From the IMG/VR virus record IMGVR_UViG_3300045988_103857: 64,000 bases of DNA. The stretch is one strand, 5' to 3'. The translations under genes were made by a program, and so were the position numbers. Within the stretch, counting starts at the first letter, position 1; each line of letters starts with the position of its first letter. The notes beneath the pieces were generated by a model that was given only the letters and a program-made list of their open reading frames with translations, was not told the DNA's origin and searched no databases. Of this stretch, positions 16,837 through 64,000 are shown in pieces. This DNA comes from a virus.

Positions 16837-19800
16837 ATGCCTGACAACACAATAGATAGCCTTGCGATAGAGGTCAGCAGTAACGTATCAAATGCAAGTA
16901 AATCCATTGATGATTTATGCAATAAACTGAATCGCCTGAGCAGTCGTATGTCTGAGAGCATCAAGTATCTCAGAGACTTTTCAGCTTCCGTCGGTACGGT
17001 CAACTCTGCTGTTCAAGCACTTAAATTGGACAGGCTTGATTTATCAACGATAAACAGTCAATTGCAACAGTTTACGCAGTCCATGAGTGCGCTCGGTAGC
17101 CTGAACTTGAGAAACAACGGATTAAACTCATTCGTAAATGCAATCCGCAGATTGAACGAAACATTAAATTCCACAGGTGATGTGTCTGGAAAGATTCAGA
17201 GCATGATTTCTGAGCTATCCACGCTTGGCAGTATTCCAGACGTATCAAACAACGTGAACCGGTTTATTTCTTCGTTGGCAAGATTGGCGAATGCAGGCAG
17301 CTCTATTGATGCAGTTACATCAAAACTTCCAAATCTTGGTGAAGAACTTAGAAAAATCATAGTTTCATTCTCTGGAATAGGTAATATTTCTCAGCCAATT
17401 AATACATTTGTTCAGTCAATATCTCAGTTGGCAAATGCAGGAGATAAAACCGGAAAGACAGCAACTCAGCTTAATGATCTGGCAAATAGCCTAAAATCAT
17501 TCTTCCAGACGATGAGTACCGCTCCTAGAATCAGTAGCAGTACAATTCAAATGACTCAGGCTGTTGCTCAGTTGGCAAATTCTGGGGCGAATGCCGGTAG
17601 AGCGGCAAGGTCTACTGCAAGTGCATTTTCAGGATTGGGACAGGGTGCGGCCACTTCGACAGGAAAGGTCAGAAAACTTGCAAACGCCGTTGGAAGTGTA
17701 GGAAGCAAGGCAAAGAAAAGTTTGCCTAGCATCATGTCTCTGGTGGCAAAATTCTGGACGTTGAAATTTGTTGTTGGAAAATTTGGAAGCGCAATTGAAA
17801 GTTCCATGAATTTTCTCGAAGATTACAACTACTTTCAAGCGGCGTTTCGTCAGGTAGCAGATAAAGCAGGAGAAACTTGGTCAGAGGCAGGCTATGATTC
17901 TGCGGAAGCTTATGCAAATTCATTTAGTAATAGAGCTAGAGAACTTACATCCAAAATGTCTGGGTTCAATGTTTCCGATAATGCGATTTTGACCGCAAAT
18001 AAATCAGGTAAATCACTCGGTATGGACCCGTCCATGCTCTTGAATTATCAAGGCCAGTTTGCACAGTTGTCGTCCTCCATGGGAACAACTTCTGAACAGG
18101 CATTAAAACTGTCGAATGCACTGACTATGATCGGTGCTGACCTTGCATCTGTTAAGAATCTTGATTTTAGCACAGTTTATGAGAACTTATCCTCTGGATT
18201 AGTAGGTATGAGCCGTGCTGTAGACAAATATGGTGCAAACATTCGTGTGGCAAACTTACAGCAATATGCGGCAAATCTTGGTATACAAACGTCTGTTTCT
18301 AATATGGACCAGGCAAGTAAGGCAATGCTGAGAACGATAGTAATACTGGATTCCACCCGGTACGCATGGGCGGATATGGCAAATACGATAAATATGCCAG
18401 CCAACCAGTTACGTATACTTCGTGCAAACTTAGTATCCTGTGCCAGAGCATTAGGTAACATCTTTATGCCTGTAGTTGCGGCAGTGCTTCCATACATCAA
18501 TGGTCTTGTGATCGCATTCCAGAGACTTTTGACATACATTGGTTCGCTTCTTGGAGTTGATACCAAAATCGGAAAAATGTTCGGTTCTATCGGTGGTGGA
18601 AGTGAAAATCTCTCGAATGCACTTGATTCCATAGACGATTCTGGAATTTCGGACGTAAATGATGCTACAAAAGATACAGACAATAATCTGAAAAATGCAA
18701 CCAAGAGCGCAAAAAAATTAAAACAGTTCCTCGCATCCTATGATGAACTTGAAATTATGAGCAAAGACGATAGTTCTCTGTCAGACCTTGCAAATTCTAA
18801 AATTAAAACGCCAAAAATTGACACATCTGCAATTGATGCAGGAATCCTCAACGATGCACTGGATAAACTTTTGAACGAATACCAGAAGAAATGGGATGCT
18901 GCCTACAACTCCATGGAAAACAAGGCTATGGCGTTCGCTAATAAGGTCACAGACACATTTAAGAAACTTGCAAAAGCCGCAGAACCTACCACAAAAGCAC
19001 TGAAAAATCTTTGGAACAATGGATTGAAGCAGCTCAGAGATTTCACATGGACAGCATTAAAAGATTTCTGGAATCATTTTTTAGTTCCGCTTGGCAAGTG
19101 GACGCTTGGGGAAAAAGGATTACCACGACTAATCAATGCTTTTAACGATTTTCTTGTGAAAATCAACTGGGACAAAATCAATGCTTCCCTTGTACAGTTA
19201 TGGGGTGTATTAGAGCCATTTGCTGAGAATGTCGGAACTGGCTTACTTGATTTCTTCGATGATTTCTTTGACAAGGCGGCAGATGGAGTTAATAAACTTC
19301 CTGATCTGATTGACAGGTTCAAAGAGTTTATCGCAGCATTCTCACCGAAGCAAGCACAGTCTATCGGATATTTCCTCGGACAGCTCCTGACAGCTTTTGT
19401 AGCATTTAAAGGGCTTACATGGTTTGGAAGTATTTTCGGTAAAGATGGAGCGATAGGCAAAGGAATCACCATGTTAGCAACGCATCCATATGCTTCGATA
19501 GCGGTAGGATTAGGCCTTACCGTTGCTGCACTTGATAAATTTGGAGTAATTGATGTTGATTGGGACGGGTTATGGACAAGAATCGGGAATCTCAAAGACG
19601 TAATTGTGAATTTCATCAAAAACATTGATTGGGATTCGTTAATAAAAACAATCGGCGATGTATGGGATGTATTCCAGCCATTTGCTGAAGGATTCGCAGA
19701 TGGATTTATCAGCTTTTTCGATATAATGCTGAACGATATTGGTGCCCCACTGATTAATACATTAGTAAGCGTCTTAGATGCTTTCGCAAAAGCCTTAGGA

Positions 19801-21813
19801 AAGCTTGACGATAAGCAGATAGAAGCTCTTGGCGAAGCTCTAGCACGGTTTTTTATTATAAGGGGAAGCATTAAGTTTGCCCGAAATATATACAATGTAG
19901 TCAGTTCTATCAGCGCACTCAGAACAATCTTCGGTGGGTTAGGAACGGTTCTTTCCACAGCCAGTGGTGCATTGCAGACATTCTTTGGCTCTGGACTTGG
20001 TTCTACGCTTGCGGCAGGATTCGCAGACAGCATGGTTGTCTTAGGAACTGCAATGGCAGGTTTCAACCTCGGAAAGTGGATAAGTGTTAATCTGTTCGGC
20101 GGCGAAGATAAAACTTTTGGAGAGTTTTTGGAAGATAATGTATTCGGATATCAAAAAGGAGATTTTACCGGTGCTATCAACGAATGGATGAAAGATATAT
20201 TCGGAGTCGGTAATAAACTTACAGAGGATGATTTAAAGGTATTTCAGGAATATGAAGATGCTATTCTAGGTTTGGTTCACGCAAGCCAGATTTCAGGCGA
20301 ACAAGCATATCCTTTATTAACATTCCTTTCCGAATTGAAAGATAACGGATATAGCACAGAACAGGCGTTGTTTGAACTTGAACTCAAACTCAATAATCTT
20401 GGAGTTTCATCAGAGGACTTCGAGAATGCGATAGCAGGAGTAAACAAACCAGTCAAAGACCTTGGAGATACAGCGGAAACATCCTCTAATCAGTTTTCAA
20501 ATATGGCTGATCGGATTAACAATGTGTCGTTTGAGGATATCTCAGAACAGCTTACAGGATTCCAGACGCTTATCCAGACCGTTGACTTTGCAACTCTGGT
20601 AACAGATACGGCAAACGCAATTGATGAGATGGGCGGCATCTGGGAAAATGGAAAACAGATTCTCGGAGAAAAAGCATTACAGATTTATCAGGAAATTTCA
20701 AAGGGATTAGAACCGGATGATAACGGCTACTATACTTTAGCAAACGGACAGATGGTGCAGTTTGGAAAAGGTATTTCTGATTATGAAAGCACTCTACAAA
20801 GTACAATGGATTCAACTTTACAGGGGGCAATCAACGGCGTTCTGGATAACAATTCTGGTTTTGAATTAGTCACAGAACTCGGAAAGAATCAGATTCTTGC
20901 CGTAGGTAGTGGGATTGAGCAAAACGGCAGTAAAGTCACTGAAAAGCTTAACTCAACAATTCAATCATCTGCGAAAGGTGCAGAAGAAACTGCGAAATCA
21001 AGCGGCAAAACCCTTGGAAGCAACATTGCAGAGGGATTACAGACTGGAATTAACGGGAAGAAAGAAAGCACAAAGACTTCGATTCTTGATCTAATGAATA
21101 ACAGCGTAAAAGCCCCTGCACAGGAAGCAGTAGACTCCCATTCTCCGTCCAGATGGTTCAAGCAGCTTGCAGAGTACTGCGGTCAAGGATTCCGAAACGG
21201 ATTAGAGCCGGGCTTTTCTGCGTCGTTCACATGGTTCGGAAGAATCCGAAGCAGAATCAGCAATTCCATTGGAAACCTGTATAATATCGGTTGGAACTCT
21301 ATTATTGGCTTAAATAATGGAATTGTAGGCGCGGCACAACAGCTTTATGCAAATGTGCAAAAAATCGCACAAAATATATCAAATACGTTCCGCAAAGTTC
21401 TTAAGATTCATAGCCCGTCGCAGGTAATGATGGAACTCGGTGGATTTACCGTTGAGGGATTCCAACTCGGTATGCAGAATATGCTTCCGAAAGTTGAATC
21501 CACCATCAATGATATAAGCGCCGAAGTGCAAAAAATTAATACACCAACCGCAGACATTATCACAAAGAGTGCATCCTATCAGGAAATAAAGAGCAGAATG
21601 TCAGTTGATACAGATGATTTTGTGGATGATATGCGAAAAGAAATCATGGCAATCAGCAGTAACACGTTTGACAATAATCAGATGATCGGGCAGGCGGTCA
21701 AAAACGCTCTGAACGGTATGGCAATATATGCAGACGGGCATCTGATTGGGTATCTGAAAGAAGAAAATCAGCAGTTCAGAAACCGTAATGGCTACGGACT
21801 GTTTGAAGGGTAG
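16837..21813 (+). CDS. tail tape measure protein
   Basis: 1658 aa with long helical repeats and internal hydrophobic segments, positioned after the chaperone pair. Confidence 0.9.
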   Translation: MPDNTIDSLAIEVSSNVSNASKSIDDLCNKLNRLSSRMSESIKYLRDFSASVGTVNSAVQALKLDRLDLSTINSQLQQFTQSMSALGSLNLRNNGLNSFVNAIRRLNETLNSTGDVSGKIQSMISELSTLGSIPDVSNNVNRFISSLARLANAGSSIDAVTSKLPNLGEELRKIIVSFSGIGNISQPINTFVQSISQLANAGDKTGKTATQLNDLANSLKSFFQTMSTAPRISSSTIQMTQAVAQLANSGANAGRAARSTASAFSGLGQGAATSTGKVRKLANAVGSVGSKAKKSLPSIMSLVAKFWTLKFVVGKFGSAIESSMNFLEDYNYFQAAFRQVADKAGETWSEAGYDSAEAYANSFSNRARELTSKMSGFNVSDNAILTANKSGKSLGMDPSMLLNYQGQFAQLSSSMGTTSEQALKLSNALTMIGADLASVKNLDFSTVYENLSSGLVGMSRAVDKYGANIRVANLQQYAANLGIQTSVSNMDQASKAMLRTIVILDSTRYAWADMANTINMPANQLRILRANLVSCARALGNIFMPVVAAVLPYINGLVIAFQRLLTYIGSLLGVDTKIGKMFGSIGGGSENLSNALDSIDDSGISDVNDATKDTDNNLKNATKSAKKLKQFLASYDELEIMSKDDSSLSDLANSKIKTPKIDTSAIDAGILNDALDKLLNEYQKKWDAAYNSMENKAMAFANKVTDTFKKLAKAAEPTTKALKNLWNNGLKQLRDFTWTALKDFWNHFLVPLGKWTLGEKGLPRLINAFNDFLVKINWDKINASLVQLWGVLEPFAENVGTGLLDFFDDFFDKAADGVNKLPDLIDRFKEFIAAFSPKQAQSIGYFLGQLLTAFVAFKGLTWFGSIFGKDGAIGKGITMLATHPYASIAVGLGLTVAALDKFGVIDVDWDGLWTRIGNLKDVIVNFIKNIDWDSLIKTIGDVWDVFQPFAEGFADGFISFFDIMLNDIGAPLINTLVSVLDAFAKALGKLDDKQIEALGEALARFFIIRGSIKFARNIYNVVSSISALRTIFGGLGTVLSTASGALQTFFGSGLGSTLAAGFADSMVVLGTAMAGFNLGKWISVNLFGGEDKTFGEFLEDNVFGYQKGDFTGAINEWMKDIFGVGNKLTEDDLKVFQEYEDAILGLVHASQISGEQAYPLLTFLSELKDNGYSTEQALFELELKLNNLGVSSEDFENAIAGVNKPVKDLGDTAETSSNQFSNMADRINNVSFEDISEQLTGFQTLIQTVDFATLVTDTANAIDEMGGIWENGKQILGEKALQIYQEISKGLEPDDNGYYTLANGQMVQFGKGISDYESTLQSTMDSTLQGAINGVLDNNSGFELVTELGKNQILAVGSGIEQNGSKVTEKLNSTIQSSAKGAEETAKSSGKTLGSNIAEGLQTGINGKKESTKTSILDLMNNSVKAPAQEAVDSHSPSRWFKQLAEYCGQGFRNGLEPGFSASFTWFGRIRSRISNSIGNLYNIGWNSIIGLNNGIVGAAQQLYANVQKIAQNISNTFRKVLKIHSPSQVMMELGGFTVEGFQLGMQNMLPKVESTINDISAEVQKINTPTADIITKSASYQEIKSRMSVDTDDFVDDMRKEIMAISSNTFDNNQMIGQAVKNALNGMAIYADGHLIGYLKEENQQFRNRNGYGLFEG

Positions 21814-27647: not shown

Positions 27648-29075
27648 ATGACAAACGAACAGAAAACAGTTCTCAGGAAGATTATTTATGCGGTCGAAAC
27701 TGGCGGACAGGTTTACGGACAACAGGATTATTCGGACTTCACGGAAGCCTATACGAATAACTCAGATGAACACGCAATTACAATCGGTGCAGGAGCGTGG
27801 TACGGAACCGAAGCCAAGGCACTTTTGGAACGAATTTACGATGCCGACCCGGAACAGTGGGAGAAGATAGACGAAGTCAGACTTTTGGAACAAGTTCAGA
27901 CCGCTAATTGGGAATGCTTCAATATTTCCAGACTATCACAACTTGCCGACACTATAGTTGCCCTTATTTCGTCCGATTTGGGCGTTAAATGCCAAGATAG
28001 CCTTATGGATGAACAATTAGCCATCTATGCAGACGAAGCCATTAAACAGGGCGTTACGGACGCTAGAGCGCAAGCTATGTGTGTGAACTTTAGACACCAA
28101 GGCGGACAGGGAGCAGTAACGAGGATTCTGGCAAAGACTCAGAAGCCATATACGCTCGATAATCTCTATGCAGCTTGTCAGACGGACACAGGGAATCAAG
28201 TCGGGGCATATGAGAGCAGGCAGAGATTTGTTTATGGCGCATTAAAGACATATTTTCCAGAAAGTGAGGAGACAGACATGAACGCAATTGATAAATTAAT
28301 CCAGATCGCAAAGAATGAAACCGGATATCTTGAAAAGGCAAGTAATAGTCAGCTTGATAGTAAGACAGCAAATGCCGGAGAAAATAATTATACGAAATAT
28401 TGGCGTGATATTAAGCCGGATTATCAAGGACAGCCATGGTGTGCTGCATTTGTTTCGTGGTGCATGATGAAAGCATTCGGCTTAGACACAGCGAAGAAAC
28501 TTTTGAAACACTGGCCATACGTTTATTGCCCGACAATGGCGGATTTGTTTACTCTGAACGGCAATCCAAAAGTCGGAGACATTGTTATTTTCTACAGAAA
28601 CGGAGAATTTACGCATACTGGAATCGTAATAAAAGTGTCAGGAGATCGGTTCTGGACAGTCGAAGGAAATACTTCTGGTGGCTCTACAATTATCGCAAAT
28701 GGTGGTGGTGTATGCCAGAAAAGTTACTACAACAGCAACCTTCCCGGAACAAAATTCTGCACTCCAAATTACAGTTTAGTTAAAAATACAACGTCAGTTT
28801 CAGACTCAGATACAGTCAAAAAACAGAACACTAGAGCCTACATTGCGCAGATTAAAAAAGGCACAAAATGTTATACAAAATCAAACAAAAACAGCCCATC
28901 TAAACTGTTCCCAAAACTGAAAAAAGGTGCAGTTGTAGAGGTGATGAAGTACACGGAAACCGACAGTTCAGGGCTGAAATGGTACTTCATCCGCATCCCG
29001 CATCCGACAGAAGGGTTTGTTTTTGAATTTGTTCCAAAGGGAACGTTTACCAGAATCACAGAAATTTCTAAATGA
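27648..29075 (+). CDS. endolysin: N-terminal domain of unclear type + CHAP amidase/peptidase + C-terminal SH3-like binding domain
   Basis: CHAP signature QPWCAAFVSWC ... FTHTGIVI ... TVEGNTS. The C-terminal segment AQIKKGTKCYTK...GAVVEVMKY...WYFIRIP is SH3-like. Confidence 0.8.
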   Translation: MTNEQKTVLRKIIYAVETGGQVYGQQDYSDFTEAYTNNSDEHAITIGAGAWYGTEAKALLERIYDADPEQWEKIDEVRLLEQVQTANWECFNISRLSQLADTIVALISSDLGVKCQDSLMDEQLAIYADEAIKQGVTDARAQAMCVNFRHQGGQGAVTRILAKTQKPYTLDNLYAACQTDTGNQVGAYESRQRFVYGALKTYFPESEETDMNAIDKLIQIAKNETGYLEKASNSQLDSKTANAGENNYTKYWRDIKPDYQGQPWCAAFVSWCMMKAFGLDTAKKLLKHWPYVYCPTMADLFTLNGNPKVGDIVIFYRNGEFTHTGIVIKVSGDRFWTVEGNTSGGSTIIANGGGVCQKSYYNSNLPGTKFCTPNYSLVKNTTSVSDSDTVKKQNTRAYIAQIKKGTKCYTKSNKNSPSKLFPKLKKGAVVEVMKYTETDSSGLKWYFIRIPHPTEGFVFEFVPKGTFTRITEISK

Positions 29076-40295: not shown

Positions 40296-40862
40296 GGCGA
40301 CCATAAGAAGTCGTACAAAGAAATATTGAATGCCGGCATTCAAATTTACACCAATGACGAGACAGTTAAGAGTGTAAACACAATCTCTGGTGAGCTGATG
40401 ATCGGCTTACCAGAAAAGAAATCGAAGGACATAGGTTCGTTCCGGGCAACGCCTTTCTACGTCCCGCACGACAAGACACCAAACTTTGCATACCTGATAT
40501 CTCACGAAGAATGCGGACGACTGATATATGCGACAGACTTCTCATATTTGTCGTTCACATTCAAGAACATGAGAATAAATCACTTCCTTATAGAATGTAA
40601 TCATCTTGATGAATCGCCGGAGCAGGATTCATTTAAGTTTGAACACTCCATCCGGGGGCACAGCAGTTTATCTACTGTAAAAGAGATTATCCGAGTGAAC
40701 AAGACCGCTTCACTCAGGACTATAACGCTGTGTCACCTGTCAGAGGAATGGGGAGACCCGGAAGTGATGCAGAAAGAGATACAGGACGTTGCCGGGGATG
40801 ATGTTCTGGTGCAAATCGCAAGACCGGGATTGGAAGTCGACTTGAACTTATGCCCGTTTTGA
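40296..40862 (+). CDS. MBL-fold metallo-hydrolase, remainder of gene in +1 frame (begins GDH...; no canonical start before TTG 40326)
   Basis: The frame opens at 40296 with GGC GAC CAT (G-D-H), completing HEHGDH. The downstream sequence FYVPHD...YATDFSY is MBL-like. Confidence 0.7.
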   Translation, partial: GDHKKSYKEILNAGIQIYTNDETVKSVNTISGELMIGLPEKKSKDIGSFRATPFYVPHDKTPNFAYLISHEECGRLIYATDFSYLSFTFKNMRINHFLIECNHLDESPEQDSFKFEHSIRGHSSLSTVKEIIRVNKTASLRTITLCHLSEEWGDPEVMQKEIQDVAGDDVLVQIARPGLEVDLNLCPF

Positions 40863-47413: not shown

Positions 47414-47636
47414 TGCGGATGCAATGAATGAAGAGTTATTTTACAAGCAAGTTGTAGGAAAAGACAGTTTAATTACGGCAGAAAGTGCGTTTAAAATGAT
47501 TGACGCGCAGCCGACTGCCTATGATGTGGAAGCAGTTGTGGAGCAGTTGGACACATACATAACAAAACTGGTTGGAAGAAATGCTGCACTATATCAGACG
47601 GTTATGCAAATCGTGAAAGATGGTGGAGTTGAATGA
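47400..47636 (+). CDS. hypothetical protein (MRLIDADA... N-terminus)
   Basis: The internal ATG of ORF 47301..47636 overlaps the previous gene's end. Confidence 0.4.
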   Translation: MRLIDADAMNEELFYKQVVGKDSLITAESAFKMIDAQPTAYDVEAVVEQLDTYITKLVGRNAALYQTVMQIVKDGGVE

Positions 47637-48037
47637 GAGAAATTCTTTTCAAGGCAAAGCGGATTGATAATGGCGAATGGGTTGAAGGATATGTAGTTCG
47701 TAAACATGGATTATACTTTATTTATAGTATTGTAAATTCAGAATCATGCAGACAAAACAATTATGAAATCATTCCAGAAACTCTTTGCCAGTTCACAGGA
47801 CTTTGCGACAGATATGGGAATAAAATCTGGGAAAATGATATTTTGATGGCTCATTTGGACGAATCTTACCCAGAGGATGCGACATATGAAACTATTGAAT
47901 GGGGCGTTGCAGGATGGGTAGGACACGAAACTGGTAGCACGGATAAAGAATATCGTGGCGAGTTTGATCTTGAACATTACGAAGTGGTTGGGAACATTCT
48001 CGACAATAAAGAACTATTGCAGGAGGAACACAAATGA
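47633..48037 (+). CDS. YopX-family protein
   Basis: Contains REILFKAKRIDNGEWVEGY...LCQFTGLCDRYGNKIWENDIL...VGNILDN. Confidence 0.7.
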   Translation: MREILFKAKRIDNGEWVEGYVVRKHGLYFIYSIVNSESCRQNNYEIIPETLCQFTGLCDRYGNKIWENDILMAHLDESYPEDATYETIEWGVAGWVGHETGSTDKEYRGEFDLEHYEVVGNILDNKELLQEEHK

Positions 48038-53183: not shown

Positions 53184-54398
53184 ATGAATAATGACGACTT
53201 GAAATATGCAATTGAGAATGGTATCATCAATTTGTCTCACATACAAGAGCAAGTTGAAATGAATAAAAGGGAAGATATATTAAAAGAATACAGGGACAGT
53301 ATATGGAAGGCATCTGACGGATATTGGAAAATTCGTATGACTTATGACGAAACCGGACAGAGGAAAATGTTTAAGCGTCGGTCTAAACAGGATTTAGAGG
53401 ACTTGATTGTAAAGACACACCGTGAGAAAGCAGAGAATCCAAAGATTAAGAGCGTATTCGAAGAATGGGCACAGCGCAAGGTTGAATTGAACAAGATTTC
53501 AATTCAAACATACCAGAGGTATCAGCAGGACTTCAATCGGTTTTTTGGAACCATGGGCGAACGCAGAATCAAAGACCTTGAGTCAGAGGATATCAGCAAC
53601 TTCCTGGAAGAACAGATCAGCGAACACAATCTAACCGCAAAAGCTTTCTGCAATCTTAAGACAATTACCAGAGGTACCCTGAAGTGGGCGAAGCGCAACA
53701 AGCTGATTGATTGGAACGTGCAGGAATTATTCTATGACTTGGATGTCACCGATAAATCTTTCAAAAGAAATATCAAAGAAGATTCAGAAGAAGTATTTAA
53801 TGATGCTGAAATGGACAGGATGATTGATTACTTAAAAGATAATCAGGATATAATAAATCTTGGCATTATGCTTATGTTCGTAACTGGTCTGAGAGTTGGG
53901 GAGCTATGCGCTTTGAAATGGAATGATTGGCTACCACATATCAGTACGATTAAAGTCAGAAGAACGGAAGTAAGGCACTTTGAAAACCATAAAGGCATTT
54001 TTGAAGTCAAAGACTTTCCGAAAACAGAAGCAGGCGTGAGAAATGTAGTAGTTCCTCAGGGATGCATCTGGATATTGCAGAAACTCAGAAATATGTCGGC
54101 ATTCTGCGAATATATATTTTCTAAAGATGGAAAGCGATTAAATACTTATTCGTTCAGGAACCGGTTAAGAACAGTGTGCAAGAAAACTGGTTGTATTCAA
54201 AAATCACCGCATAAAATACGAAAAACATATTGCACGATATTACTCGACCACAGCATAGATAATCAGATGGTCACATCACAGATGGGCCACACAAATATTT
54301 CGTGTTCCGAGAACTACTACCACAGAGATCGAAAGGACCTCAAGAAAAAACAAAAAATCATGGACAGCATAGATGAATTTATGGTAGTATCAAGATAG
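53184..54398 (+). CDS. int: tyrosine site-specific recombinase (phage integrase)
   Basis: SAM-like N-domain, then the catalytic region ...TGLRVGELCAL..., HKIRKTYCT..., GHTNISCSENYYHR. Confidence 0.85.
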   Translation: MNNDDLKYAIENGIINLSHIQEQVEMNKREDILKEYRDSIWKASDGYWKIRMTYDETGQRKMFKRRSKQDLEDLIVKTHREKAENPKIKSVFEEWAQRKVELNKISIQTYQRYQQDFNRFFGTMGERRIKDLESEDISNFLEEQISEHNLTAKAFCNLKTITRGTLKWAKRNKLIDWNVQELFYDLDVTDKSFKRNIKEDSEEVFNDAEMDRMIDYLKDNQDIINLGIMLMFVTGLRVGELCALKWNDWLPHISTIKVRRTEVRHFENHKGIFEVKDFPKTEAGVRNVVVPQGCIWILQKLRNMSAFCEYIFSKDGKRLNTYSFRNRLRTVCKKTGCIQKSPHKIRKTYCTILLDHSIDNQMVTSQMGHTNISCSENYYHRDRKDLKKKQKIMDSIDEFMVVSR

Positions 54399-56993: not shown

Positions 56994-57509
56994 TCATATT
57001 TTTATATCTTCTGCAAAATCTGCGCCGGGGTTGCTGGATTTTAATTGTTTGAACATATCAAAAGCCTTTTTTCTATCTTTTCCGGCGTATTTTATAAAAT
57101 TTGTCTGTTCTTCATGACCATCGTTCAAATTTACATCATAAAAAAATATGTAATAAAACACGTTTTCATGCCGGCGCTGTTGACGCTTTAATACAATTTT
57201 CTTTTTTACAGGTGAAGTTTTTAAAAAATTATAACGGCGTGTCAATTCTGCCTGATATGCTTTTAACTGCAATATAGTTTCTTGCAGTTCGTCTATATCT
57301 TTTTGCGAACGTTCAAAATATCTCAAAATTTCGTTTTCGGTGTGGAGCTGTTCCGGGTGCTGCTCATAAATTCCTATTTTTTTATTGCTTGTATCCTCTC
57401 TGTAATATCCATATTGTGAGAATAATTTTTTAAATAAAACGTCTTGTGAATGTTCACAGGTGCCCAATTTAGGACACCTGCAACAATATTTTACGCATTT
57501 CTCATTCAT
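56994..57509 (-). CDS. hypothetical protein (N-terminal Cys cluster)
   Basis: 171 aa with an ATGA-type overlap with the upstream gene. Confidence 0.45.
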   Translation of the reverse strand: MNEKCVKYCCRCPKLGTCEHSQDVLFKKLFSQYGYYREDTSNKKIGIYEQHPEQLHTENEILRYFERSQKDIDELQETILQLKAYQAELTRRYNFLKTSPVKKKIVLKRQQRRHENVFYYIFFYDVNLNDGHEEQTNFIKYAGKDRKKAFDMFKQLKSSNPGADFAEDIKI

Positions 57510-58585
57510 GCAATTTTCACCCCTTTCAAAGCTTCTGACGGGTCAGTTTTAAAAATAAAACTGTGCGTAAATCTGGAATAATAACCGCCAATGTTCTTAA
57601 TTTGTGCAGATAATTCTTTGTAACTTTCCCTGCTGAGAGTGTCTAACCATTTAACAAGGTAAATCTTTTCGCCGGTTTTTGTGTGCTGGCTTTCCTGTAC
57701 TGTATACGGTGCGCCAGTTGTGCCGATCTGCTCAGATGTTTCTTTTTCGGCGCTCTCTGTCGGCGCCGGGGCTGTATTCTGTTTTTTGATTCTGGCAGTT
57801 TTAGGAACGTATTTGCAATTATCATAATCAACTTTACCGTCGTAAAAATTAACGTCGAAATAGTCAATCATGCCGTCACTGTCGTTATAATTGTATGATG
57901 AAACAAAATCATTTACATCATCAATAACACTCTGAAAATACTCTGTAGGCACTCCGTAATATACTTTGTTTTCTTCAAAAACTGTTTTTTCATAGCATTT
58001 TAAAAGCTCGTCATCTGTCCAACTGTCAGCGGTAAAAATATCATTGTTATATAATTTTCTCCATACGCCCTGAATTTCATCACTGATGTTTTTATAAGTA
58101 TGTTCTTTTCCGTCTTTGTCTTTATACGTGCATTCTTGCCAATAATTTTCCTTTAATTCTTCAGCTGTCTTATACATCCTTTCGGGAAATTCCAAAAGGT
58201 CAACGCTTAATGACTGGCACATACTCGCGTAATGTGTGCGAATGCTAAATTTACAAGTCGGATATTTTTCTTTTACATATCCTCTGACAATTTTTGCAAT
58301 TTCTTTCAATGATAAATGACTATCATATCTGGAACCCTCCCAACCGTTATCAGTGTAGAATGTGCGACGGGTTCCGTTGGCTGTCTCTGTCTTTTCTTCT
58401 TCTGTCAGACTGTCAGCAGTTGCGGCGCGATCTTTCCAGAGCGGGAATAAAATATCATATTCCACATTAATGTCTTTCATTGTGTCCAAGTCTCCGCCGT
58501 TGTCCGGGTGATTCTCTTTCAAAAGTTTCTTATACTGCTCTTTCAAATCTTTGTAGCTTTTTACGTTTTTGAAATATTTGCTCAT
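57506..58585 (-). CDS. J-domain (DnaJ-like) protein with large C-terminal region typical of conjugative-element polyvalent proteins
   Basis: N-terminal YKDLKEQYKKLLKENHPDNGGD carries the HPD motif. Confidence 0.6.
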   Translation of the reverse strand: MSKYFKNVKSYKDLKEQYKKLLKENHPDNGGDLDTMKDINVEYDILFPLWKDRAATADSLTEEEKTETANGTRRTFYTDNGWEGSRYDSHLSLKEIAKIVRGYVKEKYPTCKFSIRTHYASMCQSLSVDLLEFPERMYKTAEELKENYWQECTYKDKDGKEHTYKNISDEIQGVWRKLYNNDIFTADSWTDDELLKCYEKTVFEENKVYYGVPTEYFQSVIDDVNDFVSSYNYNDSDGMIDYFDVNFYDGKVDYDNCKYVPKTARIKKQNTAPAPTESAEKETSEQIGTTGAPYTVQESQHTKTGEKIYLVKWLDTLSRESYKELSAQIKNIGGYYSRFTHSFIFKTDPSEALKGVKIA

Positions 58586-59670: not shown

Positions 59671-60050
59671 ATTAAGCACTAATAGCAATTGACATAATGT
59701 ACAAATTAAGCACTAATTATTTATGGCAAATTGTGCATTATGATTAAGCACTAAAATTGTTGACAATTAAGCACGCGCATATTATAATGAAGAAAAATAA
59801 AGGAGGAATAAACATGGCAGAATTAACAGTAGAAGAAAAAGCAATAAAGAATAGAGAAGCAGTAAAGAAATGTATGAAAAATAAGGATAGAATAAATGTG
59901 ATCTTACCGCAGGGAACACTCGACAGAATAAACGCATACGGATTAAAAACCAACGCTTTCGCAAGGGAATTAATTCTTGCAGAACTTGATAAAATGGATA
60001 GAATGAAAAAAATGTAAATTAAGCACAAATAACTATTGACAATTAAGCAC
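59671..60050. promoter_or_regulatory. six copies of ATTAAGCAC; two sit inside consensus promoters TTGACA-17-TATAAT (59760..59788) and TTGACA-17-TATACT (60036..60064)
   Basis: Copies start at 59671, 59705, 59743, 59766, 60018 and 60042. The 59766 and 60042 copies lie immediately 3' of a -35 hexamer. Confidence 0.7.
59814..60017 (+). CDS. RHH-type (CopG/Arc-like) small DNA-binding protein, candidate autoregulator
   Basis: AAAGGAGG RBS. The segment DRINVILPQGTLDRINAYGLKTNAFARELILAELDK fits a beta-alpha-alpha pattern. Confidence 0.5.
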   Translation: MAELTVEEKAIKNREAVKKCMKNKDRINVILPQGTLDRINAYGLKTNAFARELILAELDKMDRMKKM

Positions 60051-60092
60051 TAATAATATATACTGTAACCATAGAAAGGAAGTGGTTACAGA

Positions 60093-60611
60093 ATGAGTGA
60101 TTTATTCAATATTCCAGATAAAGACCGATGCGGAGTATACACAATAACAAATAGAAGAACCGGAAAGAAATATATAGGTTCTTCTACACAATTAAAAAAG
60201 CGCGCGGAAGTCCACAAGGGAGAAATCGCAAGAAGAAAACACAATAACAGGTCAATACAACAAGATATTTTGAAAAATGATGACTTTGATTTTAAAATTG
60301 TAAAAGTTATTGATGAATCAAACTATTTGTATTATGACGAAATTCGAAATAAAATGTATTTAGTAGAGTACAAATTAATAAAATCCGGAATTTTGAACGG
60401 TGAAGATTTGTACAATCTCGAAACATTAAAAGTAGTTGATGCAAGGTTGAAAAGGGTACAGGAAGATCAAGAAAAAATATCAAAGAGAAAGCAAGAAGTT
60501 TACGATATGCTGAAGCTTTCAAACGAAAAGTTGCTTTATGAATATGCGACTAATAATGATTTTTTTGAATCCAGACTGTTAAAAGAAGAAATCTTAAAAA
60601 GAATGAGTTGA
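60093..60611 (+). CDS. GIY-YIG domain nuclease
   Basis: Contains CGVYTITNRRTGKKYIGSSTQLKKRAEVHK...YLVEYKLI. Confidence 0.7.
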   Translation: MSDLFNIPDKDRCGVYTITNRRTGKKYIGSSTQLKKRAEVHKGEIARRKHNNRSIQQDILKNDDFDFKIVKVIDESNYLYYDEIRNKMYLVEYKLIKSGILNGEDLYNLETLKVVDARLKRVQEDQEKISKRKQEVYDMLKLSNEKLLYEYATNNDFFESRLLKEEILKRMS

Positions 60612-60653
60612 ACCAATCACACAGCCCCGGGGAGGGGCGGAACGGAGGACAAA

Positions 60654-60986
60654 ATGAGAAAAGAGGATTTGCTTAACAAGAAAAATGAAACTGCCGAAAA
60701 CTTGCAGTGGTACGTTAGAGACGTCATCACAGACGAGGACTTGAAATGTTTTTCAATTCCTCAGCTTGAAAGATTAATTAATCTTGTCGAGCGGGCTGAG
60801 GCATTTCGCGAAAAATGCGAAAGTTTTTGCACATTATCAGTAAATGAAGTGGTACAGAAGAGCACCGGACGAATTGCATATTTTGAAAACTCTGGAGAAA
60901 TCCGGGAAGAAACTCCCGAAGAGTGTATGCAGGGAGCTGCTCGACAAGGGTATATCAATTACCTGAATGGCAACGAAAAGGCGTAA
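60654..60986 (+). CDS. hypothetical protein
   Basis: ACGGAGG RBS, 110 aa. Confidence 0.4.
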   Translation: MRKEDLLNKKNETAENLQWYVRDVITDEDLKCFSIPQLERLINLVERAEAFREKCESFCTLSVNEVVQKSTGRIAYFENSGEIREETPEECMQGAARQGYINYLNGNEKA

Positions 60987-61170
60987 CTAAAACAGTTACG
61001 CCCCGCTTGATAAGACCTTACAATCTTATTTTAACATATTTCAACTCAACGTCCCGCCGTTGATCGGGACGACTCCCAGTGAAATCATGGAACACCGGGA
61101 AACAACAATAAAAATTGCTGATATCGAAATTATATGTCAGCGCAGGGAAAAAGTCAAGGAGAAAATAAAC

Positions 61171-61401
61171 ATGAAATTAAACACATTGTCATATGTCCTC
61201 TGTTCCGAGGACACAATTGAAGCTGGTAAAGAATATTTCTTCGGTCAGCTCTGGGATGGAAACGGGGACGGCGAGGAACTTTTGGAGTCCGGAGCAATCG
61301 CCGTATACCAGAACGGTGAGGAGTACATTGTTGATTTCGAGATTCTGGAAGCTGCGGAAGATATTTTACAAACCCGTGTTAAAGTTACCGGGATTAACTA
61401 G
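61171..61401 (+). CDS. small acidic protein
   Basis: AAGGAG RBS, 76 aa, D/E-rich. Confidence 0.4.
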   Translation: MKLNTLSYVLCSEDTIEAGKEYFFGQLWDGNGDGEELLESGAIAVYQNGEEYIVDFEILEAAEDILQTRVKVTGIN

Positions 61402-61411
61402 GAGGAGAAAA

Positions 61412-61615
61412 ATGAAAGAATTTGAATTAAAACAGGTGGCGCGGAACAATTCCGAAAACTTCGGATGTTCCAAAGTCACAGCAGCTTGGCTGTGCGGCAC
61501 AGAAGCCCAGAAAGAGAATTTTATAAGTTCTCTGGGTGAGAACTGGGTGAGAATCCCGGCGGAACTTGTTGACGAAACCGCCGAGCAGAATTTTATTTCA
61601 TATGCTCGGGCATAA
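61412..61615 (+). CDS. small acidic protein
   Basis: GGAGGAG RBS, 67 aa. Confidence 0.4.
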   Translation: MKEFELKQVARNNSENFGCSKVTAAWLCGTEAQKENFISSLGENWVRIPAELVDETAEQNFISYARA

Positions 61616-61632
61616 GGAGGAGGAAAAAGAAG

Positions 61633-61836
61633 ATGTTAGAAAGAAAAATTGATCGAGCAATTGAGAAAGAAGCAATGAAAACCGGGAAGATGGGAACCGA
61701 ACCGGTGACCGTAGAAATGGCACTGACAAGCGGAGAAATCGAGGAGTTTAGAAACCTCGAAAAATATGACAGTAAAAATTATTTCTGGGAAATTGAGGGC
61801 AATACTCTTAGAATTTCCTACACAGAAGAAATTTAA
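61633..61836 (+). CDS. small acidic protein
   Basis: GGAGGAGG RBS, 67 aa. Confidence 0.4.
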   Translation: MLERKIDRAIEKEAMKTGKMGTEPVTVEMALTSGEIEEFRNLEKYDSKNYFWEIEGNTLRISYTEEI

Positions 61837-61856
61837 GAAAATGGAGGAAAAAGAAG

Positions 61857-62051
61857 ATGAAAAAAACAATTGATCTATTAAACGAAGTTACAGAAATGGG
61901 ATTCGGCAGAGAGCAGGCGCTTGCAGACATCGATGCAAGCCTCGACTCAGAACTTGAAGAAAGAAAGCCACTGATGGAGGAAGAAATACCAGAAAGTCTG
62001 TATGATGATATCCTTGAAGGTTTTCGAGCAGACAAGGAAATGAACGCATGA
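61857..62051 (+). CDS. small acidic protein
   Basis: GGAGG RBS, 64 aa, strongly D/E-rich. Confidence 0.4.
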   Translation: MKKTIDLLNEVTEMGFGREQALADIDASLDSELEERKPLMEEEIPESLYDDILEGFRADKEMNA

Positions 62052-62737
62052 AAGCGGTAATGATACAAGGACATATGGACATCGCCGGGTTTTTAATTCC
62101 GGGATGGAACGGCAAGCGGGGCGAAACGTACCCGCTTCCGCCTTTTTCTACAGTTGCTGGGATGGTTCATTTTCTTTGTCGGTGGGACAGTTGGCACGAT
62201 ATGAAGATATCCGTATCCGGCAATGGAGTCATGAATAAGCCGGAAATTTGCATGAGGTGGCGCGGCGGAGCTGTCGCAGGATCAGAGACAGAGGAGTTTA
62301 AACAGCGTTTTCCGGTCAGGGTAAAATCCGGGAATTCTTTTGTGGGCTGGGTTAATACACCGATTTATGAAAGCGTGGTGTCTGATCTGGACCTGCGGCT
62401 GCATATTATGCCGGATAACCAGGAAGAAGTTGACGTAATTTACAGAAAAATCTTAAATCCCCGGACATTTCCAAGTCTGGGACGGCATGAGGACTTGATA
62501 AGAATTGACAACGTGCAGGTTGTTGACGTTTTGCCAGCACAGGAAATGACACTTGATATGTGTGCTTATGCACCGGCTACAGTAGAAACGCCCGGAACTG
62601 TGTACACAGTTCACAAAGATTATACGATCAGTAAGGGAAAGCGAAGATTTAATGATGTTCGAGCAAAATATTTAGATAGAGGAACGAAAGTAATTACAGA
62701 TTGTGATAATTTAAACAATCCTTGTTTTTTCATCTGA
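62048..62737 (+). CDS. cas5: Cas5-like protein (type I-B Cas5t-like), solitary
   Basis: The N-terminal ...GETYPLPPFSTVAGMVHFLC and internal FPSLGRHEDLIRIDNVQVV match my memory of the Cas5 (Tneap/I-B) family. No cas7, cas8 or cas3 gene lies next to it. Confidence 0.6.
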   Translation: MKAVMIQGHMDIAGFLIPGWNGKRGETYPLPPFSTVAGMVHFLCRWDSWHDMKISVSGNGVMNKPEICMRWRGGAVAGSETEEFKQRFPVRVKSGNSFVGWVNTPIYESVVSDLDLRLHIMPDNQEEVDVIYRKILNPRTFPSLGRHEDLIRIDNVQVVDVLPAQEMTLDMCAYAPATVETPGTVYTVHKDYTISKGKRRFNDVRAKYLDRGTKVITDCDNLNNPCFFI

Positions 62738-62743
62738 TTTATA

Positions 62744-62792
62744 GTATTATTTAGACAACAATTACTGATGTAATTGAATGTAAATTTGAAAT
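62744..62792 (+). repeat. single CRISPR-repeat-like sequence in the cas5 3' untranslated region
   Basis: The sequence GTATTATTTAGACAACAATTACTGATGTAATTGAATGTAAATTTGAAAT ends like type I-B repeats (..GAATGTAAAT / ..TTGAAAT). There is only one copy, so this is not an array. Confidence 0.25.
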
Positions 62793-62845
62793 AGTACTGA
62801 ATAAGTGCAAATTTTAATATCTCCATTTTGGAAAGACGCAAAATA

Positions 62846-62875
62846 AGCCCCCGGGACTATCTCCCGGGGGCTTTT
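62846..62875 (+). terminator. strong rho-independent terminator closing the rightward operon
   Basis: 11-bp stem AGCCCCCGGGA/TCCCGGGGGCT running into TTTT. Confidence 0.75.
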
Positions 62876-63270
62876 GCTGTCTTATTCTGGCGGCGTAACG
62901 ACGGCGCGGCACTCAGCCGGTAAACAGCCCCACCGCCGAAGCTGTTAAAATACATTTATCACAAAACCGCCGAAGTTGTCAAGCAAAAATTTTTTTTATT
63001 TTGGGACTTGATTTTTAAAACCGACGTGGATAAAATAAAATCAACGACAGGCGACGGAACTCAGGAGGGGAGCGGTAGCCAGAGCACGAAAAGAATAAGA
63101 TTTTAACAGCCAGATCACGCCGGACAAGGTGCCGGAAGGTCTGGCTTTTTGTGCGCTATATGCCGGAAAATTTCCGTATTACAAGACGTATAAATATATA
63201 ATAACTGTTTATATAATCCCCTCCAAGATTTTAGAGACCTAGAGCGTGTCTGAAAAACATTTTAAATTGT

Positions 63271-63708
63271 TTATTTTAACCAAATTAATATTGAGGCGAT
63301 ACAAATAAATCCCAAGTAGGTTGCAGCTAATTTGTCATAACGTGTAGCGATTCGTCGGAATGCTTTTAATTTCAGAAAATACTTTTCTACTAAATGGCGT
63401 TCTTTGTATAACCACCAATCACAATGACGTTCAAATTTAGCTCCCTTTCGGGATGGAATGGTTGGCTCTCCACCGCGGGCGTACACATAATCAAGTAATT
63501 TATTACTGTCGTATCCTCGGTCAGCTAACACATTGCTTCCGTTTATTTCAATTTGATCGAGCAAAGGGATTGCATAATTGATATCATTACGCTGTCCCTC
63601 ACTGATCATTAAATAAACTGGATATCCATAGGCATCTACTGCCGCATGGATTTTGGTGCTGGCTCCTCCACGGCTATGCCCGATTTCATTTGAAGGCCCC
63701 CTTTTTTT
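63271..63708 (-). CDS. IS5-family transposase orfB, reached by -1 frameshift on an A7 run (plus-strand T7 at 63702..63708)
   Basis: After GCA AAA AAA G, the -1 frame reads GPSNEIGHSRGGASTKIHAAVDAYGYPVYLMISEGQRND...ADRGYDS... Confidence 0.7.
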   Translation of the reverse strand, partial: KKRGPSNEIGHSRGGASTKIHAAVDAYGYPVYLMISEGQRNDINYAIPLLDQIEINGSNVLADRGYDSNKLLDYVYARGGEPTIPSRKGAKFERHCDWWLYKERHLVEKYFLKLKAFRRIATRYDKLAATYLGFICIASILIWLK

Positions 63709-64000
63709 GCACCGGCACTATGCTGGTGCGCCTGGATAATAGAAGCATCAATGGATAATTCTTCCAATTCTGCTTCAAGACTTAAAATACGGAAAATATT
63801 ATCAAGGATACCATCATCGATCCATTTTCGGAATCGGCTATAGACAGTTTTCCATGAACCATAACGTTCAGGAAGATCGCGCCAAGGTGCCCCACTACGT
63901 GCAAGCCATACAATTCCATTCATAATGATACGATTGTCTTTCCTTGGACGTCCTTGTTTTCCAGTATTTTCAGGAGGTAATAAAGGTTCAATGCGAAGCC
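63636..64000 (-). CDS. IS5-family transposase orfA (N-terminus beyond the window)
   Basis: The frame stays open to the window edge (..GRPRKDNRIIMNGIVWLARSGAPWRDLPERYG..). Confidence 0.75.
   Translation of the reverse strand, partial: LRIEPLLPPENTGKQGRPRKDNRIIMNGIVWLARSGAPWRDLPERYGSWKTVYSRFRKWIDDGILDNIFRILSLEAELEELSIDASIIQAHQHSAGAKKGGLQMKSGIAVEEPAPKSMRQ

Follow-up and report, generated by a model that had tools for sequence, protein, structure and literature searches.

Why would a phage carry one subunit gene of a CRISPR effector complex and no other part of the system? The question is raised by a 64,000-nucleotide stretch of viral DNA (IMG/VR record IMGVR_UViG_3300045988_103857), hereafter the window, in which a first-pass annotation singled out a solitary cas5-like open reading frame (ORF) at 62048..62737 on the plus strand, together with a repeat-like RNA in its 3′ untranslated region (UTR). 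The window is the genome of a tailed phage, free or integrated as a prophage, with Lachnospiraceae on the host side; we conclude that it belongs to a temperate Lachnospiraceae phage. The evidence set out below, from profiles, predicted fold, RNA and operon layout, supports the proposal of that annotation that a Cas5 mimic and a repeat-like RNA are joined in an operon of the anti-CRISPR (Acr) type. We put the probability that the locus is a two-component anti-CRISPR module of this phage at about 0.65. The idea of a solitary viral cas5 is itself already known, since the catalogue of Katz et al. lists close relatives of this gene.

The product of ORF 62048..62737 is a clear but diverged Cas5 homologue, by profile and by fold. 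It has 229 amino acid residues, in line with the length of about 230 ascribed to it, and contains both motifs that had been quoted as Cas5 hallmarks, ETYPLPPFSTVAGMVHFLC and FPSLGRHEDLIRIDNVQVV. The best profile matches were PADLOC Cas5b (E = 5.4e-22) and NCBIfam TIGR01895 cas_Cas5t (E = 1.3e-19; 70.6 bits, with a curated cutoff of 96.7), followed by TIGR02593 (E = 0.019) and Pfam PF09704 (E = 0.05; 14 bits, with a cutoff of 23). An AlphaFold2 model based on 38 homologues reached a predicted local distance difference test score (pLDDT) of 90.9. When this model was searched against the PDB with Foldseek, the top 16 matches were all Cascade entries, the best being 4tvx_H (type I-E) and 8fcj_A (Cas5 of a type I-B CRISPR-associated transposon), which together with 6c66_M and 9cp1_G gave TM-scores of about 0.5–0.58; the named matches also include type I-A and I-C Cas5 subunits and Cas5-HNH complexes. 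The N-terminal TYPLPP.ST..G..H and SLGR.ED motifs are invariant in the family alignment. The profile and structure searches thus bear out the assignment to Cas5.

The gene stands alone. In tblastn searches of the window and 67 related phage loci with host Cas6b, Cas8 (Csx8-type), Cas7b, Cas5b and Cas3b, only the cas5-like gene was matched, and no CRISPR array was found in any of these sequences; as the first-pass annotation had it, there are no cas6, cas8, cas7 or cas3 neighbours, and the gene is the sole cas gene of the 64-kb phage genome. A survey of phages for solo cas5 genes recovered numerous homologues, 46–96% identical (66 clusters and 58 IMG/VR contigs), always solitary and always in phage settings. 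Those in phage loci L003–L007 lie near the integrase/early-gene boundary, behind an HTH_26 or GIY-YIG gene and small ORFs: relative L007 has a GIY-YIG gene (181..723) two genes 5′ of cas5, where L004–L006 have the HTH_26 gene. Those in L008–L011 lie in a P2-like prophage, between tail-fibre and lysis genes and behind a helix-turn-helix (HTH) protein. Among 40 unique close relatives of the window gene, variation at codon positions 1, 2 and 3 was 0.045, 0.027 and 0.123, which indicates purifying selection on the protein. Genuine Cas5b proteins are 25–34% identical to it, and in a neighbour-joining tree the solo Cas5 family formed a clade of its own with 100% bootstrap support; AcrIB3, the Cas5-derived anti-CRISPR discussed below, and a pLM33 homologue formed another (86%).

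The second component lies directly downstream. From the cas5-like stop codon to the terminator there are 107 nt, and the plus-strand unit within them reads as a degenerate, crRNA-like (CRISPR RNA-like) repeat-spacer-repeat mini-array. Its first element, PsiR1 (62759..62785), is a 7-bp hairpin, CAATTAC-TGAT-GTAATTG (62759..62776), directly followed by AATGTAAAT (62777..62785); type I-B repeats finish with this sequence at their 3′ end, and it encodes the 5′-handle of the crRNA. A 25-nt spacer-like segment, PsiS (TTGAAATAGTACTGAATAAGTGCAA; 62786..62810), separates it from PsiR2, ATTTTAATATCTCCATTTTGGAA(AG) (62811..62835), the counterpart of the opening 23 nt of a type I-B repeat, its CCA-nnn-TGG mini-hairpin included; after the GGAA of PsiR2, the repeat 3′ end is replaced by AGACGC and the terminator. 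PsiR1, PsiS and PsiR2 would together be exactly the parts left in one mature type I-B crRNA. The first-pass annotation had described a single repeat-like 3′ end at this place. The string in question, ATTGAATGTAAATTTGAAAT at 62773..62792, does contain, as its GAATGTAAAT part, exactly the letters in which a large Clostridial family of type I-B repeats ends at the 3′ side, and comparison with CRISPR repeats showed it to be the exact handle end of repeats in type I-B systems that target the phage. The TTGAAAT that follows GAATGTAAAT belongs to the spacer-like segment rather than to the repeat, and in place of a single element there is a repeat-spacer-repeat arrangement.

GAATGTAAA is invariant and at a fixed offset in 64 relatives (38 unique UTRs), where the next base is T, C, A or G; this handle part matches the host repeat at 9 of 9 positions, the variable base after it being tolerated. 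PsiR2 is identical to a real repeat of the family at 20 of 23 positions, a value reached by none of 300 shuffled sequences (maximum, 18), and to the repeat of the arrays targeting the phage at 16 of 23. In every phage copy a hairpin ending in G stands directly 5′ of AATGTAAAN. The stem sequence differs by clade with pairing held, the signature of compensatory change: four stems, CAATTAC/GTAATTG, CAGTTAC/GTAACTG, CATCAT/ATGATG and CAGGC/GCCTG, all keep their pairing. The phage hairpins have predicted folding energies of -2.6 to -7.2 kcal/mol, whereas the host repeats, which have only the CCA-nnn-TGG mini-hairpin at this position, fold at about 0 kcal/mol. Within the window clade (40 unique clade-A sequences), PsiS and the handle are nearly invariant, against a variation of 0.12 at third codon positions of cas5; no other stretch of the UTR is as conserved as PsiS, and variation is seen in the loop of the hairpin and in mid-PsiR2. 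Other clades have different segments of 19–29 nt in the place of PsiS, and real spacers measure 34–37 nt. L004 (6059..6208) and L005 carry the whole 75-nt unit in tandem, at about 84% identity and with diverged spacer-like segments; the second L004 unit supplies the fourth stem above, as CAGGC-GTTTT-GCCTG.

Two alternative parsings of these RNAs were considered and dropped. The L004 sequence can be read as repeat-spacer-repeat, and this was rejected in favour of a tandem duplication of the whole 75-nt unit. Likewise, a reading of GTATTATTTAGAC as the portion of PsiR1 on its 5′ side is given up; the sequence may represent the -10 region (TATTAT) of a weak promoter with homology to that of clade C, in which a near-consensus promoter, TTGACA-17-TATTAT, lies between the cas5 stop codon and the hairpin. 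Searches of Rfam, over the whole window at the gathering threshold and over 62600..63300 at an E-value threshold, returned only terminator-driven chance matches.

Does the host possess a system that such a module could act on? Among Clostridia, type I-B systems are common. When one genome per species was scanned, more than 60 Clostridial arrays were found with 30-nt repeats ending (G/A)GAATGTAAA(T/G/C), and these arrays adjoin Cas5b genes where cas genes lie in the sampled stretch. The host repeats that finish in GAATGTAAA(T/G/C/A) number more than 100 distinct sequences, in most of which G or A comes before it. Such scans located this repeat family in numerous Clostridial genomes and in contigs from gut metagenomes. 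The same repeats carry the label I-B in those rows of the supplement to PMC10651486 in which they appear. Metagenomic type I-B loci of the arrangement cas6b-csx8-cas7-cas5-cas3 have repeats ending GGAATGTAAAG.

These systems target the phage. Metagenomes were scanned for arrays whose repeats fit CCAT(W)(K)TGGAATGTAAA, and 2,404 spacers were obtained. Two spacers of the array in one such locus, L242, match the minus strand of the window perfectly, one over 36 of 36 nt at 47635..47670 with a 5′ CCA protospacer-adjacent motif (PAM), the other over 35 of 35 nt at 40368..40402 with a CCG PAM. In all, ten loci hold spacers 88–100% identical to the window or its relatives, and a 5′ CCN, mostly CCA, accompanies 20 of 20 protospacers. 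The targeting repeat is ATTAAAGTAGAACCATATTGGAATGTAAAG in 9 of the 10 loci and ATTAGAATAGAACCATAGTGGAATGTAAAT in L215. Because type I-B spacers match the window at 100% and their targets have a CCN PAM, the phage is a target of type I-B immunity. In L242, cas6b, a Csx8-type large subunit (cas8), cas7b, a 366-amino-acid cas5b and cas3b lie directly upstream of the array; L324–L330 represent a second complete type I-B variant (with cas4-cas1-cas2), which also has a spacer against a relative of the phage. For the Csx8-type large subunit, the nearest relatives with a name come from Lachnospiraceae, among them Oliverpabstia and Roseburia hominis (57% identity). The Cas5b of the Csx8-type loci is unusually long, at 363–366 residues (L242, 3433..4533; L324, 8168..9259; PADLOC PDLC02094), and has an insertion of about 135 residues that classical Cas5b and the viral homologue lack. 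The cognate system of the module could be of the L242 type or of the classical Cas8b type with the GGAATGTAAA repeat. A comparison of 1,091 spacers from 120 GTDB loci having GAATGTAAA repeats with the phage gave only chance matches of 16–23 nt.

The targeting loci of the host also contain a crRNA-like gene of their own, which resembles CreR and is divergent from cas6b (L242, 150..340; L211, L238 and L321–L323). It comprises a promoter, PsiR1 (..CCACATTGGAATGTAAAA), a 21-nt PsiS (AGTATTATAAATTTTTACAGA) and PsiR2 (ATTAATAGTTGTTCCACATTGGAA|TTTCTC), with an intact handle and a PsiR2 degenerate at the 3′ end. At a site about 90 nt upstream of the ATG of cas6b, CCA+AGTATTATAAAATTGTACTTA, its PsiS can pair (11-nt seed; 17 of 21 positions matched), which points to autoregulation of Cascade in this Lachnospiraceae variant of type I-B. 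Solitary units like it are present in L141, L198 and L243. Because the host CreR-like gene has the same design as the phage RNA, the latter appears to copy a native regulatory RNA.

The operon that ends with cas5 and its RNA has the layout of an acr–aca locus. The gene had been placed last in an operon repressed by a ribbon-helix-helix (RHH) protein, and its terminal position stands; the RHH fold is plausible only. The presumed regulator is a basic protein of 67 residues (pI 9.6; 59814..60017, plus strand) that matches phrog_31631, a family of unknown function, at E = 1.8e-21 and the HicB-like RHH family of Pfam (HicB_lk_antitox) weakly at E = 0.12. Its AlphaFold2 single-sequence model shows a helix, an extended segment and two further helices at low confidence (pLDDT 71); Foldseek searches with this model gave no match, and a sequence search of the PDB matched designed repeat proteins only. 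The regulatory region at 59671..59788 holds four copies of ATTAAGCAC (at 59671, 59705, 59743 and 59766) and, at 59760..59788, the promoter of the regulator gene, TTGACA-17-TATAAT, a consensus sigma-70 promoter scoring 12/12 in our promoter scan. The operon promoter, TTGACA-17-TATACT (60036..60064), likewise of the sigma-70 consensus type, falls within 60018..60064, where two further copies lie at 60018 and 60042. All of these elements are on the plus strand. ATTAAGCAC is a direct 9-mer and a putative operator: its six plus-strand copies in 59671..60050 compare with one in the remaining 63.6 kb, it abuts both -35 boxes (TTGACAATTAAGCAC), and it overlaps the regulator and operon promoters. From this arrangement, we infer that the RHH-like protein is an anti-CRISPR-associated (Aca)-type repressor of both promoters.

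A parallel is Aca14, an RHH repressor of its own operon and of a neighbouring operon encoding AcrIF6 and a Cas5f homologue (NAR 2026, PMC13551039). Both cases combine a small non-HTH regulator under its own promoter with a motif that recurs in the promoter of an adjoining anti-defence operon. They are likened here by layout, and they differ in that the Aca14 motif is an inverted repeat rather than a direct 9-mer in six copies, and in CRISPR subtype and bacterial phylum.

The first gene of the operon, at 60093..60611, encodes a GIY-YIG homing-endonuclease-like protein of 172 residues (Pfam GIY-YIG, E = 7e-7; TIGR01453, E = 2e-9; PHROG homing endonuclease, E = 1.6e-10), which might mobilise the cassette between phages. 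It is followed by an acidic ORF of 110 residues (60654..60986; pI 4.79) that matches no family in Pfam, NCBIfam, PADLOC or PHROGs. The four ORFs immediately before cas5 were said to encode strongly acidic proteins of 64–76 residues with strong ribosome binding sites. The lengths and the binding sites, all of the GGAG/AGGAGG type, are as stated; only two of the four are strongly acidic. These are a candidate Acr of 76 residues at 61171..61401 (pI 4.05, net charge -12) and a 64-residue protein at 61857..62051 (pI 4.08, net charge -12); between them lie two mildly acidic ORFs of 67 residues each, at 61412..61615 (pI 4.80, net charge -3) and 61633..61836 (pI 4.71, net charge -5). The stop codon of the 64-residue ORF is overlapped by the cas5-like ATG, and the protein is about 70% identical between clades A and C, in both of which its gene always adjoins the cas5-like gene. 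The protein has 511 homologues, the few with a source name being Caudoviricetes or bacteriophage records, and a weak UBA-like N-terminus (Pfam UBA_7, E = 0.025), the only match that any of the small acidic ORFs gave to host Cas proteins, PADLOC, PHROGs or Pfam. We infer that the small acidic ORFs, foremost the always-adjacent 64-residue one, are further Acr candidates. The operon and the RNA end at an intrinsic terminator with a G+C-rich stem (62845..62873, plus strand); its presence had been noted, the UTR being given as 110 nt where we count 107, and the stem as 11 bp where we find 12. The terminator scan listed it on the minus strand, and a T run (TTTT) follows it on the plus strand too.

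How might such a module act? AcrIB3, a Cas5 homologue of Listeria seeligeri with its gene on mobile elements, stops type I-B interference at a point upstream of DNA binding (10.1101/2023.06.24.545427); it co-purifies with Cascade, and a real Cas5 is not inhibitory (Katz et al., 10.1101/2023.06.24.545427, later Nature 2024). Like the window gene, it is a full-length Cas5b homologue that stands alone on a mobile element among genes of the acr/aca type. The two proteins (that of AcrIB3 being our L001) are 33% identical over 227 residues (E = 5e-41). By analogy, the phage protein would bind the crRNA 5′-handle or the neighbouring Cas7/Cas8 surfaces and enter Cascade in place of the host Cas5b of 363–366 residues, and the resulting Cascade would be unable to engage DNA. 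The differences concern ancestry, host and RNA: the window protein belongs to a separate clade, AcrIB3 being nearer to classical Cas5b (36–43% identical) than to it; the host of AcrIB3 is Listeria, in which alone its homologues were found (Katz et al., 10.1101/2023.06.24.545427), that of the window phage a member of the Clostridia (Lachnospiraceae); and AcrIB3 has no repeat-like RNA downstream, the gap in L001 being 31 nt. Five IMG/VR contigs (3300045988_035813, _065832, _101626, _103204 and _117306, our L053, L068, L064, L028 and L052), whose proteins are 88–95% identical to that of the window, appear in the rows of Table S3 of Katz et al. as orphan cas5, CAS-I-B, with host g__Blautia_A (10.1101/2023.06.24.545427). 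The gene family has therefore already been catalogued as an anti-CRISPR candidate. In these rows it figures in a hit list only, as a family untested there, and the preprint text, Table S2 and the Table S3 rows describe neither its RNA nor its regulator nor the spacers targeting it (10.1101/2023.06.24.545427).

The RNA is best called a putative crRNA mimic, which would compete for Cas6b, Cas7 and Cas5. Two groups of viral RNAs provide the model. Solitary-repeat RNAs (Racr) inhibit CRISPR systems, and in RacrIC1-AcrIC5 the acr and racr share one transcript (Camara-Wilpert et al., Nature 2023, PMC10651486); the main text of that paper does not mention type I-B and so describes no Racr test for this type, and in rows of its supplement solitary repeat units with repeats of this family are catalogued from many type I-B cases in viruses. 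Viral Cracr RNAs have a PsiR-PsiS-PsiR structure with a short spacer, are sometimes multiplexed and often lie near acr genes, and type I-B candidates have been predicted (Liu et al., 10.1101/2024.10.29.618823). By analogy with both, host Cas6b would bind and process the phage RNA, and lengthening of the stem to 5–7 bp may have produced a stronger Cas6b site. The RNA would then soak up Cas6b, Cas7 and Cas5, or would form a short-spacer Cascade unable to license Cas3; by either route it would compete with real crRNAs.

With the Racrs, the window unit shares its place in an anti-defence locus of a virus, away from cas genes and arrays and inside the operon transcript, and it may also share with them the character of a non-coding RNA in imitation of a host repeat. 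The solitary repeat units in the supplement rows are near-full-length, with 91–100% identity to a known repeat, a range that no single contiguous repeat copy in the window unit reaches; the latter keeps the handle and the first 23 nt, split by the 25-nt segment, and has a longer stem in place of the Cas6 hairpin. Furthermore, RacrIF1 needs no 5′-handle, which in the window RNA is the invariant part. With the Cracrs, the unit at 62759..62835 shares the form of a PsiR-PsiS-PsiR mini-array with a shortened, 25-nt PsiS. It differs from them in having no PsiS seed of at least 9 nt in common with host CreR/CreA or with a PAM-flanked host promoter in the sampled loci, and it falls outside the published operational definition of a Cracr, since no seed is common to its PsiS and the CreR-like one of the host. 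The locus is a well-supported candidate, on the sequence evidence, for a new case both of the Cas-homologue kind of Acr and of the repeat-mimic kind of RNA.

A tentative extension would make the Cas5 mimic and the crRNA-like RNA one co-evolved ribonucleoprotein rather than two independent inhibitors. The viral Cas5 would cap the conserved 5′-handle, the hyper-stabilised hairpin would capture host Cas6b, and host Cas7 (and Cas8) would be nucleated into dead-end or re-targeted Cascade complexes, so that protein and RNA would jointly imitate an intermediate of Cascade assembly; the acidic protein of 64 residues could be a third component. We hold this joint arrangement to be unlikely.

A number of observations weigh against the two-component anti-CRISPR module. 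The protein scores below the curated cutoffs of NCBIfam Cas5b and Pfam. It is about 25% identical to the 363–366-residue Cas5b of the targeting loci and has about 135 residues fewer, so its substitution into the targeting Cascade is not assured; the viral Cas5 could be either a truncated, defective subunit or one adapted to type I-B systems of the classical kind, which have this handle as well. Because it and AcrIB3 fall into separate clades, the mechanism of AcrIB3 may not transfer. On the RNA side, the 5′ two-thirds of PsiR1 are unlike a repeat, a distant solo-cas5 clade (L008–L011, 46% identical) is without such an RNA, and the promoter of the window RNA itself is weak (TTGTTT-17-TATTAT), for which reason the RNA is probably made mainly as the operon 3′ UTR. 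Ten relatives without cas5 and PsiR1 retain PsiS-PsiR2. These (L311–L320, from IMG/VR) are deletion derivatives, in which the end of the 67-residue ORF and a 15-nt scrap of cas5 are followed by PsiS-PsiR2-terminator, orf64, cas5 and PsiR1 being gone; the deletions mark the module as accessory. In addition, the small acidic ORFs match no known Acr among the AcrIB4–9, AcrIIA and AcrVIA sequences, and the RHH fold of the regulator was confirmed neither by Pfam (E = 0.12) nor by Foldseek.

Could the RNA be a true guide instead? In this alternative of the Cracr type, a hijacking or regulatory role that we consider doubtful, it would be loaded into host Cascade, possibly with help from the viral Cas5, and its 25-nt spacer would direct Cas3-independent binding. 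A competing element would thereby be silenced, or else a host promoter, be it that of the cas operon, of a CreT-like toxin or of some other defence. The host CreR-like gene has an identical architecture, with its intact handle, 21-nt PsiS and 3′-degenerate PsiR2. As the most conserved stretch of the UTR, PsiS may well have a sequence-specific role; its differences between clades and the two units of L004 and L005 recall published Cracr arrays, and the literature predictions of type I-B Cracrs point the same way. However, no CCN-flanked seed of at least 8 nt was found for the three PsiS types in the window or in the sampled host type I-B loci, promoters included; these were L190–L309 (among them 17 loci, about 100 kb, having the targeting repeat) and L321–L330, which are loci rather than complete genomes. 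IMG/VR gave a single chance-level match of 17 nt, in an unrelated landfill virus, and the GTDB array loci gave chance-level seeds only, including an intragenic 11-nt match in L083. As noted, phage and host CreR-like PsiS have no seed in common.

A second alternative, which we regard as distinctly unlikely, is that a Cas5-fold (RAMP) protein and a structured RNA have been exapted as a phage-internal ribonucleoprotein, for example in lysogeny or early-gene regulation, with no action on host CRISPR. This would suit the strong divergence of the protein, its scores below curated cutoffs and its separate clade, as well as the position of the locus at the lysogeny/early-gene boundary beside another conserved module resembling a small RNA (sRNA). 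It does not sit well with an RNA that keeps exactly the repeat parts recognised by host Cas6b and Cas5, with active targeting of the phage by host type I-B, with the role as an Acr of the nearest solitary Cas5 homologue to have been characterised, or with an operon layout that fits acr–aca loci. Finally, a decayed type I-B remnant, cut by the insertion sequence (IS) or otherwise non-functional, as the first-pass annotation had also envisaged, has next to nothing to commend it beyond an IS4/5 transposase about 400 nt downstream, degenerate repeats and some relatives with deletions, and it is contradicted by synteny, in that more than 60 relatives without the IS have the same solitary layout, run on into non-coding DNA and phage early genes and lack cas6, cas7, cas8 and cas3 within ±6–8 kb, as well as by an intact gene under purifying selection, a family 46–96% identical across different phage backbones including a P2-like prophage, and a hairpin stem held by compensatory change.

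The surroundings of the anti-CRISPR candidate are those of a phage. The window encodes a tape-measure protein (16837..21813), an endolysin-like protein (27648..29075), a tyrosine integrase (53184..54398) with a DUF4417 gene next to it, an SbcC-like nuclease, a DNA methyltransferase and a reverse transcriptase. The last, at 11271..12257 amid structural genes (RVT_1, E = 1.5e-18; PHROG reverse transcriptase, E = 2e-57), may belong to a diversity-generating retroelement. The compact plus-strand operon begins about 5 kb beyond the integrase. Between the two lies a minus-strand block that contains, at 57506..58585, a gene for a protein of 359 residues that has an LPD29 domain and, at its N-terminus, a weak J-domain (DnaJ, E = 0.0025). 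A megablast search of the locus against GenBank phages gave no match; the IMG/VR host prediction for close relatives of the phage is the genus Blautia_A.

The adjacent IS5 element that had been reported is present as an IS4/5-family transposase at 63271..63923, in two minus-strand ORFs (DUF4096, 63636..63923; DDE_Tnp_1, 63271..63609). The element spans 63220..64000 and extends past the window end. Since relatives lack an IS at this position, it is a recent, window-specific insertion; it sits downstream of a second conserved non-coding module and not at the edge of a cas locus.

This second module (62890..63152), beyond the operon terminator, has a fold z-score of -3.3 and is possibly a phage sRNA. 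Direct repeats, ACCGCCGAAG(C/T)TGT(T/C)AA, lie at 62932 and 62966; the module further has a sequence resembling a promoter, TTGATT-17-TAAAAT (63008..63036), the string GGAACTCAGGAGGGG, which is invariant, and a terminator of the stem-loop kind, located by scan at 63131..63145 with an outer stem visible by eye from about 63111. The module is kept between phages whose Cas5 proteins are only 59% identical and is swapped for other sequence in relatives L038, L056–L063 and L065. About 4.9 kb downstream of cas5, which in the window would be beyond its end, L003 and L012–L069 have a tRNA-like sequence (AGGACTCGAACCTGTGACTTGTCGGTT), found via a partial match of a spacer of L189.

What would an active module mean? 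Among the validated type I-B Acrs in the parts of the literature cited here (10.1101/2023.06.24.545427), all are from Listeria, and if the phage Cas5 homologue is active, Cas5-derived anti-CRISPRs extend beyond that genus. The locus would also offer a candidate type I-B RNA anti-CRISPR and allow a direct question, namely whether a Cas-subunit mimic and a crRNA mimic cooperate. The family is abundant in human-gut phages, with its 58 IMG/VR contigs and the hundreds of homologues of its partner ORF, and the phage and the type I-B locus that holds perfect spacers against it, with a CCN PAM, form a natural experimental pair. Such inhibitors would be relevant to phage therapy, to microbiome engineering in Lachnospiraceae and other Clostridia, and to the control of type I-B genome editing.

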